A DNA stretch of 11,976 nucleotides, taken from Opitutales bacterium (GTDB lineage: Bacteria; Verrucomicrobiota; Verrucomicrobiia; Opitutales; Coraliomargaritaceae). The notes under the pieces were generated by a model that had not been told where the DNA came from, ran no database searches, and was given only the letters and a program-made list of their open reading frames with translations. How positions within the stretch are numbered: position 1 is the first letter of the stretch; each line of letters begins with the position of its first letter. Below, piece by piece: positions 573 through 11,314 of the stretch. The position numbers were made by a program, and so were the translations under genes. The stretch spans positions 1 through 11,976 of the forward strand of contig JBMYNR010000043.1 in assembly GCA_049598495.1 (NCBI GenBank), read 5' to 3'.

Positions 573-803
573 CTAGCCTTCTGTATTCGCTACTCGTGCA
601 GTTCGGGCAGAGCGCCAGTTCTCTCGATGTTTGCGAATCCAATCGAGGAGGGCGCGTTCGAAACCGATGTCATTCCCCTGTTTCTCGGACTCAATCCACT
701 TGTGTCGAAGAATTTCTTCACGTTCGGCCAAAAACTCCTGGTAGAGGGTCGAACGTTGGGCAAATCCCTGTTGCGGTCCGGTTTCTGGGGTCGTGGAGGG
801 CAT
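573..803 (-). CDS. Small conserved hypothetical protein, DUF4032-like
   Basis: 76 aa; EILRHKWIESEKQGNDIGFERALLDW resembles the DUF4032-type 'EI..HKW..SE..G.D.G...A..DW' pattern (recognised from memory); a sigma70-like promoter lies upstream. Confidence 0.75.
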   Translation of the reverse strand: MPSTTPETGPQQGFAQRSTLYQEFLAEREEILRHKWIESEKQGNDIGFERALLDWIRKHRENWRSARTARVANTEG

Positions 804-6069: not shown

Positions 6070-7266
6070 ATGCGCTGTCTTATTATTGGCAAGGTATGGC
6101 CGGAGCCGTCATCGACAGCGGCGGGGCGACGAACCCTCGACCTGGTCGAGACCCTGTTAAGCACAGGCTGGCAAGTGGATTTTGGGTGTGCCGCCCGGAG
6201 AAGTGAGCATGCCTGCGATCTTTGCGCTCTTGGAGTGCGAGAGCACAGGCTCCAATTAAACCATTCGGGTTTTGATGACTGGATATCAGCGCTTGATCCT
6301 GATGTGGTCATCTTCGATCGGTTCATGACGGAGGAGCAGTTCGGCTGGCGGGTGGCTGAGCATTGCCCTAAAGCGCTGCGAGTTTTGGACACGAGCGATC
6401 TGCATTGCTTGCGGGCAGCGCGCGAAGAGCAGTTAAAGCGTGGCGATCATTTGCGGTTACATAATGAGACGGCATTGCGTGAGGTCGCAGCTATCTTCAG
6501 GTCGGATCTTACGATGATGATTTCTGAGTTTGAAATGGATCTTTTAAATCGTGAGTTAGGGGTGCCCGACCACTTGTTGACCTACTGGCCCTTTGCGGTT
6601 GAACCCCCGGAGGTGGCTCCATCCTTTGAGCAGCGCGAGCACTTTATTATGATCGGCAGTCTGCTGCATGCGCCAAACCTCGATGCGGCCAGATGGTGCC
6701 GGGACTATGTCTGGCCGCAGATACGAAAAGAGCTACCTCGTAGTGAGCTTCATTGTTATGGATCCTATGGTGAGCGTTTCGCAGGTGAATTGGATTCGCC
6801 CGAAAGAGGTTTTCTGTTCAAGGGGCGTGCGGAGTCAGCACTCGAGACAATGGCGCAGTATCGTGTGAATTTGGCACCACTGCGATATGGTGCCGGCCTC
6901 AAGGGCAAGGTCTTCGACGGCTTTCTCTCTGGGACGCCCACGGTGATGACACCGATTGCTGCAGAGGGTATTTTTATTGAATCCGACTGGGGTATGGACA
7001 GCGCAGGGGCTTTTTCGAAGGAGGCAGTCAAATTGTATTCGCATCGTTTGGTTTGGGAGGAGCGATGCGAGAGGGAACACACTGTTTGTCGCGAACGCTT
7101 TGATCGGGCGGCGTGGCGGCAGCGATTGCCGCAGGTTCTCGAGTATGCCTGGCGATCGCGCCAGGATCATCGAAAAGTGAATTTTGTCGGTCAGATGCTT
7201 CGGCACCATCTGCACCGTAGTACGGAGTTCATGAGTCGGTGGATCGAAGAAAAGAACCGATCTTGA
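6070..7266 (+). CDS. GT-B fold glycosyltransferase (GT4-like), substrate unknown
   Basis: N-terminal IIGKVWPEPSSTAAGRR, DRFMTEEQFGWRV, LDTSDLH; C-terminal IGSLLHAPNLDA and APLRYGAGLKGKV...GTPTVMTPIAAEG nucleotide-sugar-binding region. Confidence 0.85.
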   Translation: MRCLIIGKVWPEPSSTAAGRRTLDLVETLLSTGWQVDFGCAARRSEHACDLCALGVREHRLQLNHSGFDDWISALDPDVVIFDRFMTEEQFGWRVAEHCPKALRVLDTSDLHCLRAAREEQLKRGDHLRLHNETALREVAAIFRSDLTMMISEFEMDLLNRELGVPDHLLTYWPFAVEPPEVAPSFEQREHFIMIGSLLHAPNLDAARWCRDYVWPQIRKELPRSELHCYGSYGERFAGELDSPERGFLFKGRAESALETMAQYRVNLAPLRYGAGLKGKVFDGFLSGTPTVMTPIAAEGIFIESDWGMDSAGAFSKEAVKLYSHRLVWEERCEREHTVCRERFDRAAWRQRLPQVLEYAWRSRQDHRKVNFVGQMLRHHLHRSTEFMSRWIEEKNRS

Positions 7267-7361: not shown

Positions 7362-7379
7362 CTGGCATGCCACCTGCTT
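7362..7379 (+). promoter_or_regulatory. Putative sigma54 (-24/-12) promoter of the phosphatase / synthase-phosphorylase operon
   Basis: CTGGCATGCCACCTGCTT has GG (7364-7365), exactly 10 nt, then GC (7376-7377), close to consensus YTGGCACGNNNNTTGCW; intergenic, correctly oriented, with an AT-rich tract upstream. Confidence 0.6.
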
Positions 7380-7522: not shown

Positions 7523-8317
7523 ATGAATACCCAGAGGAAACTCTTAGTCGTTACCGATCTGGATGCGTCTTTTCTGAACCATGATTACACATGGTCGGAA
7601 GCGGCTCCGGCTATTGGACGTCTGCGGGATTTATCTATTCCGCTGGTTCTCAATTCGAGTAAGACGGTCGCCGAGATGGAGAGCCTGGCCAGAGATTTGG
7701 ATTTGGACTCACCGATTGTGGCTGAGAATGGGGGCCTTCTTGCGGTTTGTGGGCAACGCGCGGGCGATTACAAATTAGAGATCACGGGGCTCGCTCGAAA
7801 GGATATCCTCCAAGTCGCCCACGATTTGCGCCGACAGATTGGCTATAAATTCGAGGGTTTTGCAGATTGGTCGGATCAAGAGCTTGCCGTGCGGACGGGC
7901 TTGTCCATTCCGATCGCACAGCGAGCGCATGCTCGAATGGCAACGGAGCCAATCGTTTGGAACGATACGGAGTCTTATCGATTGGCCTTCACCAGGGAAC
8001 TTGGCAAGAAGGGGATACGAATGCTTCGAGGCGGACGTTTTTGGCATCTCATGGGGACTGTTGATAAAGCGGACGGTCTGCGATCCGCCCTCAATCATTA
8101 TCGGGTAAAAGAGCCCGCCACTGAATGGATCGTGGTGGCGCTGGGTGATAGCGCCAACGATGTCGAGATGCTCGAGGCCGCGCATATTGCGGTCGTCGTT
8201 CCCCATGCAGATGGTCCCCATATTTTCCCGAAAGCTCCGAAAGTATTGCATGCGCCATTCCCGGCCTCAAGGGGTTGGAACGATGCCATGTTCTCAATTC
8301 TCAACGACTTCCTCTAA
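7523..8317 (+). CDS. HAD-IIB phosphatase, mannosyl-/glucosyl-3-phosphoglycerate phosphatase family (GpgP/MpgP-like)
   Basis: Start moved to ATG 7523 (MNTQRKLLVVTDLD). Motif I DLDAS, motif II NSSKT, ENGG, RGGRFWH, DK, motif IV ALGDSANDVEML; ends 9 nt before the GpgS-like ORF. Confidence 0.88.
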   Translation: MNTQRKLLVVTDLDASFLNHDYTWSEAAPAIGRLRDLSIPLVLNSSKTVAEMESLARDLDLDSPIVAENGGLLAVCGQRAGDYKLEITGLARKDILQVAHDLRRQIGYKFEGFADWSDQELAVRTGLSIPIAQRAHARMATEPIVWNDTESYRLAFTRELGKKGIRMLRGGRFWHLMGTVDKADGLRSALNHYRVKEPATEWIVVALGDSANDVEMLEAAHIAVVVPHADGPHIFPKAPKVLHAPFPASRGWNDAMFSILNDFL

Positions 8318-8326
8318 GACACGATT

Positions 8327-11314
8327 ATGGGTGATTTTCATCAACAAGGCCTCATTACCACGCTTCATCAGCTGAACAACCGACCGCTTGAAAAACTTGA
8401 GGCGGACCTGATGCAGTTTCGCAAGCACCGACCAATGGCGCTGGTGCTCCCATCGCTTTATTCCGAACTGCAAGGGCCGGCCCTCTCCGGTATTCTGGAC
8501 GAGATTGCCGAGGTTCCTTACCTCGATCAAATCGTGGTTGGGCTCGACCGTGCCAATGAAGAAGCGTATCGCCACGCACTCGAATTCTTCGGGCGTCTCC
8601 CCCAGCAACCCCAGGTGCTTTGGAATGACGGGCCGCGCCTGCGCGCCATCGACAAGTTGCTCTCGGAAAAGGGGCTGGCGCCCAAAGAACCGGGCAAGGG
8701 TCGGAATGTCTGGTATATGTTTGGCTATGTGATCGCGTCGGGTAAGGCGCAGTCCGTCGCTCTGCATGATTGTGATATCACTACTTACTCGCGCGACATG
8801 CTGGCACGTTTGATCTACCCGGTCGCGAACCCTTCATTTAGTTATAAATTTTGCAAGGGCTACTACGCACGCGTTGCCGATAACTCGATGAATGGCCGAG
8901 TCTGCCGCTTGCTGGTGACGCCCCTGATTCGCGCGCTCAAGAAGACCTGTGGTGCGACGGAGTATCTTGAATACTTGGACAGTTTCAAATACCCGCTGGC
9001 GGGTGAGTTCTCGATGCAGAAGGATGTGATCGAAGACATCCGTATTCCCTCCGATTGGGGTCTGGAAATGGGCGTGCTTTCAGAGATGCAGCGCAACTAC
9101 GCGACCAACCAGATTTGCCAAGTCGATGTTGCGGATACATACGACCATAAACACCAGGATCTTTCGCTCGAGGATCGCACGCGCGGTCTCTCCAAGATGG
9201 CCTCGGATATCACGAAGTCGCTCTACCGCAAGATGGCGACACAGGGGACCGTTTTCACCCATGAGCATATTCGTACGCTCAAGGCGGCCTATTACCGAAT
9301 TGCACTGGATCTGGTTGAGAGCTACAGTAGCGATGCTTCGATCAACGGCTTGAAATACGACCGCCATCTTGAGGGCCTCGCCGTGGAAGCTTTTGCCGAA
9401 AATATCCTCATGGCGGGCGAGGAGTTCCTCGATCCGAGCAAATCGATGGATGTCCCCTTTATGCCGAGTTGGAAGCGGGTCATTTCCGCGGTTCCCGATG
9501 TACTCCACCGCCTACGTGAGGCGGTCGAGGAGGATCGTCTCGAATACGGCTCCGCGCATGTCACTAACCCCGCACTGCATCCAAAGGCGCAACTGGTGCG
9601 CCAGCGTGTCGCGCTCCATGTTCAGGAAATCTACGGTAAGGAGGACGTTGACGAAATTACCGATGAGCTGATGGATGCCGCGAACATGTCGGAATCCTCA
9701 CAGCCCATCGCCTTGGGCACCAGTAAATGGGATCAGACTGATGTGATGATGATCACCTATGGTGACTCCATTCTGCGAGAAGGTCGGGCCCCGCTAAGGG
9801 AACTCTACAACTTCACCGTGCGCGAGTTGAAGGAGACGATCAGCGGTGTTCATATTCTCCCTTTCAACCCATATAGCTCGGACGATGGCTTCTCTGTTAT
9901 CGATTACACTGCGGTCAACCCCAAGCTTGGAACCTGGGAGGACATCACCGCCATCGGACACGAGTTCGACCTCATGGGAGACCTCGTGATCAACCACTGC
10001 TCCCGCGAGTCGGTTTGGTTCAAGAATTACATCAAGAACAAGGCTCCGGGGCGCGGCTATTTCATCAACGGAACGGAGTATGAAGACCTTTCCAAGGTCG
10101 TGCGTCCCCGCAGTACGCCGCTGTTGACCGAAGTTACCTGCGTCGACGGCGTAAAACACGTCTGGTGCACCTTTGGCGAGGATCAGGTCGACTTGAATTA
10201 TCGTAATCCCGATGTCCTTCTCGAGATTGTCCGGATTATTCGGCAATATGTGGATCAGGGCATTCGCTACTTCCGTTTGGATGCGATCGCGTTTCTTTGG
10301 AAGGAGTCGGGGAGCACTTGTGTGCATCTTCCGCAGACGCACGAGTTGATTAAACTCTTGCGCATTGTCATCGAGAATCTCGAGCCGACTGCGGTAATCA
10401 TCACGGAAACCAACGTGCCCAACCGAGAGAATCTCAGTTATTTCGGCAATGATAACGAGGCACATCTGATCTATAATTTCTCGCTGCCACCGCTCCTGCT
10501 CAACGCGATTCTGAGCGGCGACTGCAGCCACCTTATCACATGGATGATGTCGATGCCACCCGCCCGCCGAGGACGCGCCTACCTTAATTTCATCGCCTCG
10601 CACGATGGTATTGGATTGCGCCCGGCGGAAGGTCTTCTGTCGACCGATGAGTTGGACGGCCTCATTGAGACGATTAAGCAATGCGGCGGTGAGATTTCCA
10701 TGCGTCGCACACCCGAGGGTGAGCTGAAGCCGTATGAAGCCAACATTTCACTCTACAGTGCGATGGCTCGGCCGATCGGTGGCGCAGAGGACGGTCTACA
10801 AGCAGCTCGTTTCCTCTGTGCTCACGCAATTATGCTCGCGCTCGAGGGACTACCGGCGGTCTATATCCACAGCCTACTGGGCACGGAGAATGATCGTGAT
10901 GGTATGGCCCACACCGGCCGCGCTCGCACGATCAATCGTCACCAATGGCAGGCCGATGAGCTCTACGCCGCGCTCGAAGATGATGAACGCCACCATAAGG
11001 CGATCTTCTCGGAGATGAAGCGACTCATTCAAATCCGTCGTCAGCAGGCTGCCTTCCACCCGAACGCCACCCAATATACACTTCATTTCTCCGATCAGAT
11101 CTTTGCCTTCTGGCGCGAGAGCCTCGACCGCGATCAGTGCATCTTCGCGCTGCATAATGTCTCTTCAGAAAAACAAACAATCCCTTTGGTGGAGTTGAAC
11201 CTTATCGCCACTGAATCATGGAGCGACCTCATCAGCGGCCGAGTCTACGATGACCTCGGTGGCGTAATTGAGCTCGAGCCCTACGGCTGCGTCTGGATTA
11301 CCAACAAGGCCTAG
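8327..11314 (+). CDS. Apparent fusion: glucosyl-3-phosphoglycerate synthase-like GT-A domain plus GH13_18 sugar phosphorylase (probable glucosylglycerate phosphorylase)
   Basis: aa 1-~407: MGDFHQQGLITTLH start, GKGRNVW, DxD in HDCD (D148/D150), YPLAGEF, DWGLEMG, YDHKHQ. aa ~420-995: LITYGD-like MITYGDS, VHILPF, SSDDGFSV, DLVINH, QVDLN, RLDA (D652 nucleophile), TETN (E694 acid/base), SHDGIG (D760), YEAN. No in-frame stop over 995 codons. Confidence 0.85.
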   Translation: MGDFHQQGLITTLHQLNNRPLEKLEADLMQFRKHRPMALVLPSLYSELQGPALSGILDEIAEVPYLDQIVVGLDRANEEAYRHALEFFGRLPQQPQVLWNDGPRLRAIDKLLSEKGLAPKEPGKGRNVWYMFGYVIASGKAQSVALHDCDITTYSRDMLARLIYPVANPSFSYKFCKGYYARVADNSMNGRVCRLLVTPLIRALKKTCGATEYLEYLDSFKYPLAGEFSMQKDVIEDIRIPSDWGLEMGVLSEMQRNYATNQICQVDVADTYDHKHQDLSLEDRTRGLSKMASDITKSLYRKMATQGTVFTHEHIRTLKAAYYRIALDLVESYSSDASINGLKYDRHLEGLAVEAFAENILMAGEEFLDPSKSMDVPFMPSWKRVISAVPDVLHRLREAVEEDRLEYGSAHVTNPALHPKAQLVRQRVALHVQEIYGKEDVDEITDELMDAANMSESSQPIALGTSKWDQTDVMMITYGDSILREGRAPLRELYNFTVRELKETISGVHILPFNPYSSDDGFSVIDYTAVNPKLGTWEDITAIGHEFDLMGDLVINHCSRESVWFKNYIKNKAPGRGYFINGTEYEDLSKVVRPRSTPLLTEVTCVDGVKHVWCTFGEDQVDLNYRNPDVLLEIVRIIRQYVDQGIRYFRLDAIAFLWKESGSTCVHLPQTHELIKLLRIVIENLEPTAVIITETNVPNRENLSYFGNDNEAHLIYNFSLPPLLLNAILSGDCSHLITWMMSMPPARRGRAYLNFIASHDGIGLRPAEGLLSTDELDGLIETIKQCGGEISMRRTPEGELKPYEANISLYSAMARPIGGAEDGLQAARFLCAHAIMLALEGLPAVYIHSLLGTENDRDGMAHTGRARTINRHQWQADELYAALEDDERHHKAIFSEMKRLIQIRRQQAAFHPNATQYTLHFSDQIFAFWRESLDRDQCIFALHNVSSEKQTIPLVELNLIATESWSDLISGRVYDDLGGVIELEPYGCVWITNKA

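Follow-up and report, generated by a model that had tools for sequence, protein, structure and literature searches.

A fusion of predicted glucosyl-3-phosphoglycerate synthase and glucosylglycerate phosphorylase conserved in marine Verrucomicrobiota and their relatives

Nitrogen-limited cells accumulate glucosylglycerate (GGA), which is able to take the place of glutamate (PMC5381378, PMC11970481). The enzymes of its metabolism and the clustering of their genes are already known (PMC7178133, PMC10873239, PMC11009771). Glucosylglycerate phosphorylase (GGaP, EC 2.4.1.352, family GH13_18) has been described from Escherichia coli (YcjM), Meiothermus silvanus and Spirochaeta thermophila (PMC7178133, PMC11009771, PMC8950772), and its role in vivo is stated to be unconfirmed (PMC7178133). 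We analysed a stretch of 11,976 nucleotides from an Opitutales bacterium (the window), which is the entire 12-kb contig C43 of a fragmented genome of 1.75 Mb and 95% completeness. An uninterrupted open reading frame (ORF) of 995 amino acids (8327-11314, forward strand) encodes a synthase of glucosyl-3-phosphoglycerate (GpgS) and a GGaP in one chain. The described GGaPs are stand-alone proteins (YcjM has 559 aa), whereas here the phosphorylase is the C-terminal half of a longer polypeptide.

The gene order is that of the split glyK-gpgP-gpgS-ggaP operons of Marinobacter and Pseudoalteromonas and of A2021-A2023 in Synechococcus PCC 7002 (PMC10873239). As in the known contexts, the GGaP gene lies beside gpgS, gpgP and, at part of the loci, a glycerate kinase gene. 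Unlike in the split operons, the stop between gpgS and ggaP is gone and a GLYK-type kinase was not found in the genus of the window. The GpgS half is 66-71% identical to stand-alone homologs (63% to that of Pseudoalteromonas donghaensis) and the GGaP half 56-62% to stand-alone homologs of the same type. Cyclic glucan synthase (PMC10901819) also combines a glycosyltransferase with a glycoside phosphorylase in one chain and acts on an osmoregulatory glucoside. However, its families are unrelated and its phosphorylase trims the tethered polymer of the transferase itself, whereas the two activities considered here are separated by an intermediate that can diffuse and by a phosphatase encoded on its own. 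GgpPS (PMC10873239) and the bifunctional MpgS-MpgP (NCBIfam PRK14502) are likewise fusions of neighbouring solute genes, but they join consecutive synthetic steps, whereas here the first synthetic step is joined to a breakdown step. We found no description of the fusion in the literature searched, although a passing mention may exist elsewhere. The words fused and fusion led to no mention of it in PMC7178133, PMC10873239, PMC3736172, PMC11009771 and PMC8950772, nor did the word fused in PMC5381378. The synthase-phosphorylase fusion is apparently undescribed. Also new here are a conserved sigma-54 box ahead of the fusion operon and a GLYK-GpgP fusion that would complete a two-protein, four-enzyme cycle.

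The initial annotation had read the ORF as two domains with intact catalytic motifs, joined by a linker of about 14 residues, and had called for a count of homologs, with separate ORFs in close relatives as the outcome that would speak against a fusion. We found no internal stop, and the domain assignments were supported by matches to the GpgS_Meth and GH13_18 models and by alignment with YcjM. None of the 120 aligned proteins deviates in the catalytic motifs of either half. Among the GTDB loci, 77 of 79 carry the fused ORF, and the other two end at a contig edge (residues 437 and 460), beyond the synthase domain and without a stop. The protein belongs to a 90% cluster of 20 member sequences. 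A search of proteins of 547-1742 aa gave 209 matches among 8000 candidates, and beyond the protein's own cluster at least 119 full-length homologs were listed (963-1015 aa, 97-100% query coverage, 63-87% identity). Rubritalea, Lentisphaera and Thalassobacterium are represented among them by named isolates, and the nearest named relatives are marine Opitutales. Each half is present in one copy only in the window's 95%-complete genome.

An artefact of assembly or gene calling, or a fusion with one dead domain, could be suspected, as the gene sits on a whole small contig of a fragmented genome and some database entries hold the C-terminal half alone (P0243, P0247, P0249). However, P0247 and P0249 are at zero distance from the C-terminal halves of the fused genes L087 and L057, and purifying selection acts on both halves. 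With the 20-member cluster, the 119 listed homologs, isolates among them, and the 77 of 79 fused loci, the fusion is not an assembly accident, and the artefact has a vanishingly small chance. The fusion is genuine and is kept in many marine relatives.

The synthase half was matched by NCBIfam GpgS_Meth (NF040724) at residues 3-406 (E 8e-108, 360.8 bits over the full model). Its residues K124, D148, D150 and E247 align with the solved GpgS 7pdo, the overall similarity being weak (E 0.001), and these residues and YDHKHQ (272-277) are invariant in all 120 aligned proteins. Mycobacterial GpgS has an Asp134-Lys114-Glu232 network (PMC2581804), whose DxD, Lys and Glu correspond to D148, K124 and E247. 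The catalytic network is shared with mycobacterial GpgS and with the GpgS of about 400 aa (GpgS_Meth), and the fusion adds the phosphorylase domain. From the GGaP partner and the JGI names of homologs we infer glucose rather than mannose as the donated sugar and 3-phosphoglycerate as the acceptor. Homologs of this synthase type number at least 8000 (222-709 aa), so that fused proteins make up only a small part of the family.

The phosphorylase half was matched by TIGR03852 (GH13_18) at residues 472-949 (E 6e-60, 203 bits, under the cut-off of 334) and is identical to YcjM at 227 of 572 aligned positions (40%). D652, E694 and D760, which we take to be the catalytic Asp, Glu and Asp of GH13, are identical in YcjM and invariant in 120/120. 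GGaPs are marked by (T/S)ETN at the acid/base loop and by a loop-A Glu where other clades carry Gln (PMC7178133). All 120 proteins have TETN at 693-696 and Y803-E804, the latter aligned to PYEIN of YcjM. The sequence signatures speak against sucrose, sucrose 6F-phosphate and glucosylglycerol phosphorylase as identities, as loop A reads ELKPYEAN and not N(L/V)D(I/L/V)YQ, GFDVHQ, KxxYYQ or VGAIYQ. The myxobacterial GH13_18 clade (GExRPYE and AETD) was also rejected; GELKPYE resembles its loop A, but the acid/base loop is TETN and not AETD. The database name 'sucrose phosphorylase' for fused proteins is probably wrong. Pfam detects only an alpha-amylase domain and leaves the synthase half without a match, and the names in the ESM Atlas are automatic alpha-amylase labels only.

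The ratio of nonsynonymous to synonymous substitution rates (dN/dS), determined from 15 disjoint pairs out of 73 full genes, was 0.045 for the synthase half and, for the phosphorylase, 0.15 over the first 46 residues and 0.081 over the core (471-995). Both halves are under purifying selection and, judged by their motifs, both look active. The linker region (residues 406-424) had the highest of these values, 0.16. D403 and Y436 are 33 residues apart in 97 of 116 proteins, with six lengths in the range of 29-34; 22 of 30 segments compared have a single length, and the linker is among the most length-variable. Most of the D403-Y436 span can be explained by the synthase tail and the N-terminal phosphorylase extension that split homologs possess. 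Synonymous diversity in the 73 genes showed no dip at the junction and no synonymous-site constraint on the linker.

At 16 positions, a residue that is conserved among 116 fused proteins is replaced in split ones, of which 106 or 94 were compared. They are mostly conservative changes and none falls in a catalytic motif; some are charged (K174, E236, K467, R750 and E931), and only four lie in the phosphorylase, none of them in VRPR, TETN or PYE. Proteins that have apparently been split again retain E236, Q262, K467, R750 and E931, the five positions checked. These positions may thus be inherited lineage marks. Linker and positions together are compatible with an interface between the domains and equally with its absence. 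An internal sigma-54 box that could yield free phosphorylase was not conserved (best bin 9/73 genes), and an internal start codon with a Shine-Dalgarno-like 4-mer occurred in at most 10/73 genes. The fixed stoichiometry that the initial annotation had proposed as one possibility, here 1:1, agrees with these results. The features of the locus are listed in Table 1.

Table 1. Features of the gpgP-fusion locus, with positions in the window.
Feature	Position	Strand	Details
Sigma-54 (-24/-12) promoter-like box TGGCATGCCACCTGCT	7363..7378	+	ahead of the gpgP-fusion operon; predicted from the motif
gpgP, HAD-IIB glucosyl-3-phosphoglycerate phosphatase-like, separate gene	7523..8317	+	264 aa, ATG 7523 to TAA 8317
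GpgS domain, GT-A glucosyl-3-phosphoglycerate synthase, ~400-aa type	8327..9547	+	residues 1-407; K124, D148-C-D150, E247, H274
Linker GSAHVTNPALHPKA	9548..9589	+	residues 408-421
GH13_18 glucosylglycerate phosphorylase domain	9590..11314	+	residues 422-995; D652, T693-E694-T-N696, D760, loop-A E804

To place the fusion among its relatives, we built trees of the two domains. Where named, the closest stand-alone relatives of either half are mostly marine Gammaproteobacteria. With FastTree, all fused rows fell into one clade, both among 82 synthase domains (support 91, 5 unfused rows nested) and among 103 phosphorylase domains (support 93, 11 unfused rows nested); the inputs were thinned from 280 and 247 rows, respectively. 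In an IQ-TREE analysis of 48 hand-picked GpgS domains, with P0131 and P0132 left out and the root set by an assumed outgroup, 22 fused and 2 re-split rows formed one clade (97/89), with two changes overall. Some of the nested 'unfused' rows are pieces of fused genes, such as P0247 and P0249 mentioned above, and P0243 begins within the tail of the synthase. Other nested rows are P0131, P0132 and several from the phosphorylase tree. P0123, P0124, P0127 and P0129 (synthase) and P0256 and P0286 (phosphorylase) group together inside the fused clade of the respective tree and have clean ends. This group is a probable re-fission, with P0124/P0256 and P0129/P0286 as putative pairs, matched by the equal lengths of their contigs. 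P0127 comes from a eukaryotic protein set and is probably bacterial contamination.

At the split loci the genes retain the sequence kinase, gpgP, gpgS, ggaP; the last two either overlap or are separated by at most 123 nt, and in L188, L199 and Pseudoalteromonas L254 a single in-frame stop lies between them. The trees point to one origin for the fusion, as sister to the adjacent split gpgS and ggaP of marine Gammaproteobacteria. Since the split genes adjoin, some of them one in-frame stop apart, the loss of a stop codon is the simplest origin, and most likely the fusion arose simply by the two neighbouring genes running together. Programmed read-through in the split relatives was also considered; gpgS and ggaP share a frame in 8/15 loci, three of one genus and two near copies, which are too few to judge.

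To examine the distribution, we searched 401 genomes from the phylum and obtained matches in 80. Nineteen of these are at 55% identity or more (18 fused and 1 split), 4 are stand-alone at 36-38% and 57 are weak matches to a shorter type. Of 73 family genomes, 36 have the fusion; 23 encode a phosphorylase that stands alone and belongs to another lineage (42-49%), 1 has a fragment and 13 have none at the threshold. The fused gene and the stand-alone GH13_18 of the other lineage, which comes with a short-type GpgS, never occur together in these 73 genomes, and this mutual exclusion suggests displacement. Two sub-lineages of the fusion exist in the family, at 77-90% and 56-60% identity. Outside the phylum, long open frames of 791-999 aa were found in 2/151 genomes of the phylum of a Myxococcota-labelled locus and in 3/101 of that of a Hydrogenedentota-labelled one; such patchy carriers suggest transfer as a unit. 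Carriers labelled Yoonia (L044), Polaribacter (L050) and Vicinamibacteria (L064) were discarded as further cases, being placed by GTDB in the window's phylum instead; the coordinates of the 'Polaribacter' locus are identical to those of a genome in the window's family. No phage record covered both halves (22 records; among the 10 matches listed, the phosphorylase half only). Unannotated 'Listeria phage' records with GH13_18 genes are probably host DNA in assemblies. Plasmid matches spanned both halves in 7/333 cases, which are split Pseudoalteromonas genes (three inspected).

The gpgP gene ends 9 nt before the fusion gene, and its product scored 182 bits with TIGR01486 (MPGP family, cut-off 164.75) on a 286-aa frame from 7457. 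A gpgP homolog flanks the fusion in 76/79 loci. The phosphatase is thus a gene of its own, as had been claimed, and the fused steps are not consecutive. A P-loop kinase lies in or beside the operon in 26/79 loci, its best solved relatives being the D-glycerate 3-kinases 6ckg and 7xpc. With the query used, no GLYK-type kinase was found in the window's genome or in 13/13 other genomes of the genus; it was found in 12/73 family genomes, within the family only in the second fused sub-lineage. A class I glycerate kinase is encoded in the window's genome, as is a GlgC that scores above the cut-off.

In six fused loci (four Pontiellaceae, Haloferula and Lentisphaera marina), kinase and phosphatase are one protein of about 575 aa. 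Because the glycerate kinase is fused to GpgP there, two chains encode the whole four-enzyme cycle. The kinase-GpgP fusion was seen in L073:4274-5986, L077, L078, L082, L089, L091, L110 and L111 and also in L254:1766-3508, L255 and L256, and is annotated merely as HAD-IIB hydrolase. Pseudoalteromonas has it alongside split gpgS and ggaP. On its trees, some three events of gain or loss are needed, but no branch with good support compels any of them. As this pair is also fused in some lineages, the operon appears prone to fusions of neighbours. No recurrent gene for a source of glycerate was found in the neighbourhoods. A GT4-like glycosyltransferase (398 aa, 6070-7266, forward strand) just upstream of the promoter was rejected as part of the system, being adjacent in 7/79 loci, all close kin. 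Nitrite reductase genes lie downstream of the fusion in four loci. More generally, the gpgP-fusion pair sits among nitrate/nitrite assimilation genes downstream in L022, L028, L045 and L046, upstream in L022, L033, L045 and L047, and also in L061; these neighbours are a NirA-family reductase, a molybdopterin oxidoreductase and an NMT1-like ATP-binding cassette (ABC) binding protein. Elsewhere in the window, a 76-aa ORF (573-803, reverse strand) with a weak DUF4032 match lies between MazG-like and Mrp/ApbC genes.

Of the 71 loci with enough flank, 62 have a box like the predicted promoter, scoring at least 9/11, no more than 300 nt upstream of the operon's first gene; shuffles gave 1.4 such loci and the reverse strand 2. 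As the loci are related, these numbers overstate independence, and two box hits are more palindrome-like. The GG-N10-GC box of the window is accompanied by rpoN in the genome, as expected for a sigma-54 regulon. The genome also encodes two enhancer-binding proteins, one of which scores best with ntrC (494.6, cut-off 558.6). With a matrix made from the relatives' boxes, the window site ranks 7th of 37 genome-wide, and three of the top five matches precede urtA-, amt- and glnII-like genes. Sigma-54-like boxes at G000:C4:26932, C48:6353, C1:134527 and C11:12353 lie before genes for a urea ABC binding protein, an ammonium transporter, a type II-like glutamine synthetase and a phosphoenolpyruvate carboxylase, and these form a candidate nitrogen regulon in a small-genome verrucomicrobium. 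Matches to sigma-70 promoters and terminators were not above shuffles and none was fittingly placed. The suggested link to nitrogen status is supported by the position and conservation of the box.

On balance we think it likely that the protein is a bifunctional GpgS-GGaP that runs both ends of GGA turnover, with independent domains and a phosphorylase that serves recycling. Its N-terminal domain would make glucosyl-3-phosphoglycerate from nucleoside diphosphate-glucose (probably ADP-glucose) and 3-phosphoglycerate. The separate GpgP would dephosphorylate this to GGA, according to the literature a nitrogen-free anion that can replace glutamate in seawater under nitrogen limitation. The C-terminal domain would then phosphorolyse GGA to glucose 1-phosphate and glycerate, and a glycerate kinase would feed the released glycerate back to central metabolism. 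Transcription would start at the sigma-54 promoter, probably under nitrogen limitation and through a presumed activator and signal. The fusion would have arisen once, when the stop codon between gpgS and ggaP was lost in a glyK-gpgP-gpgS-ggaP operon of the marine gammaproteobacterial type, would have spread in marine Verrucomicrobiota and their kin, and would rarely have been undone. As the two activities would be produced in a 1:1 ratio, control of net flux has to act after translation; the levels of inorganic phosphate (Pi), glucose 1-phosphate, ADP-glucose, 3-phosphoglycerate and GGA would make the phosphorylase an overflow or recycling valve, the domains most likely being independent.

Several observations weigh against parts of this scheme. 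The synthase domain falls short of the NF040724 cut-off of 700; however, a stand-alone Marinobacter GpgS homolog also scores only 374.6 bits, which suggests that the model is narrower than this GpgS subtype. Strong sigma-54 matches genome-wide (16 bits or more) number 7, no more than in shuffles (5-9), so that the nitrogen link rests only on position and conservation. The enteric NtrC palindrome was seen in 2 of 60 cases (shuffles 3.9), and a box scoring at least 9 in only 1/10 split loci checked, several of which have little flank or flank of a gene other than the first. Finally, the linker is under purifying selection and has a single length in most proteins. The fusion is retained down to 56-60% identity and in 18/19 close phylum homologs, and this retention could reflect selection for the joint and not a ratchet.

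These last points would also fit an adaptive fusion, in which the two domains would meet at a common interface and regulate one another, so that a signal (Pi, 2-oxoglutarate, glutamine, K+ or GGA) would switch one on and the other off and avert a futile cycle. Opposing activities are fixed at 1:1 behind one promoter with no conserved internal start, the fusion is found across phyla, and some of the 16 fused-specific positions are charged. However, the genes of the split relatives are also co-transcribed neighbours, exposed to this futile cycle although unfused, the 16 changes are mostly conservative, the re-split proteins keep all five of the positions checked, and the linker is the least conserved segment. 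We consider an adaptive fusion unlikely. Reciprocal regulation as its purpose, which the initial annotation had suggested, gained no support, as the split genes adjoin, the linker is least constrained and one lineage has apparently been split again. A nitrogen-sensing switch whose make-or-break sites are reciprocally controlled across an interface, with GLYK-GpgP as its partner in some lineages and two bifunctional proteins then running and gating a complete four-step cycle, is similarly doubtful.

The phosphorylase might instead work mainly in synthesis (glucose 1-phosphate and glycerate to GGA and Pi), which would place two routes to GGA in one protein. The reaction is reversible, a starvation promoter would suit two synthetic activities, no GLYK-type kinase was found with the query used in the window's genus, and a glycerate-producing E. 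coli from which ycjM had been deleted reached a 3.1-fold higher glycerate titre, but not a higher yield (PMC8788829). However, the glycerate 3-kinase homolog at 26/79 loci fits glycerate recycling, a class I glycerate kinase is present in the window's genome, and no glycerate source gene recurs nearby. The second synthetic route proposed in the initial annotation thus keeps a slim chance and has become less likely because of the kinase homolog that accompanies the operon. Fusions usually join consecutive pathway steps, and a phosphorylase shifted to glucosyl-3-phosphoglycerate would make the two halves consecutive, as a relief route against build-up of the phosphorylated intermediate. GH13_18 does include sucrose 6F-phosphate phosphorylase, which has a phosphorylated substrate (PMC7178133). 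However, the acceptor-site motifs VRPR, TETN and PYE are as in YcjM and the split homologs, and none of the four phosphorylase positions that separate fused from split proteins lies in them, which makes such a shift very improbable.

Taken together, our results correct the annotation of proteins that are filed as alpha-amylase or sucrose phosphorylase. Because of these names and the synthase half without a Pfam match, GGA synthesis in marine Verrucomicrobiota is easily missed. With synthase and phosphorylase made 1:1 under one probable nitrogen-starvation promoter, the direction of turnover cannot be set by separate transcription, and the question of its control becomes testable with a single purified protein as well as in marine strains in culture. 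Should the domains turn out to be independent, this is a tidy but ordinary operon fusion. If a nitrogen-sensing switch is true, the protein would be a natural single-protein model for storing versus spending a nitrogen-free osmolyte.

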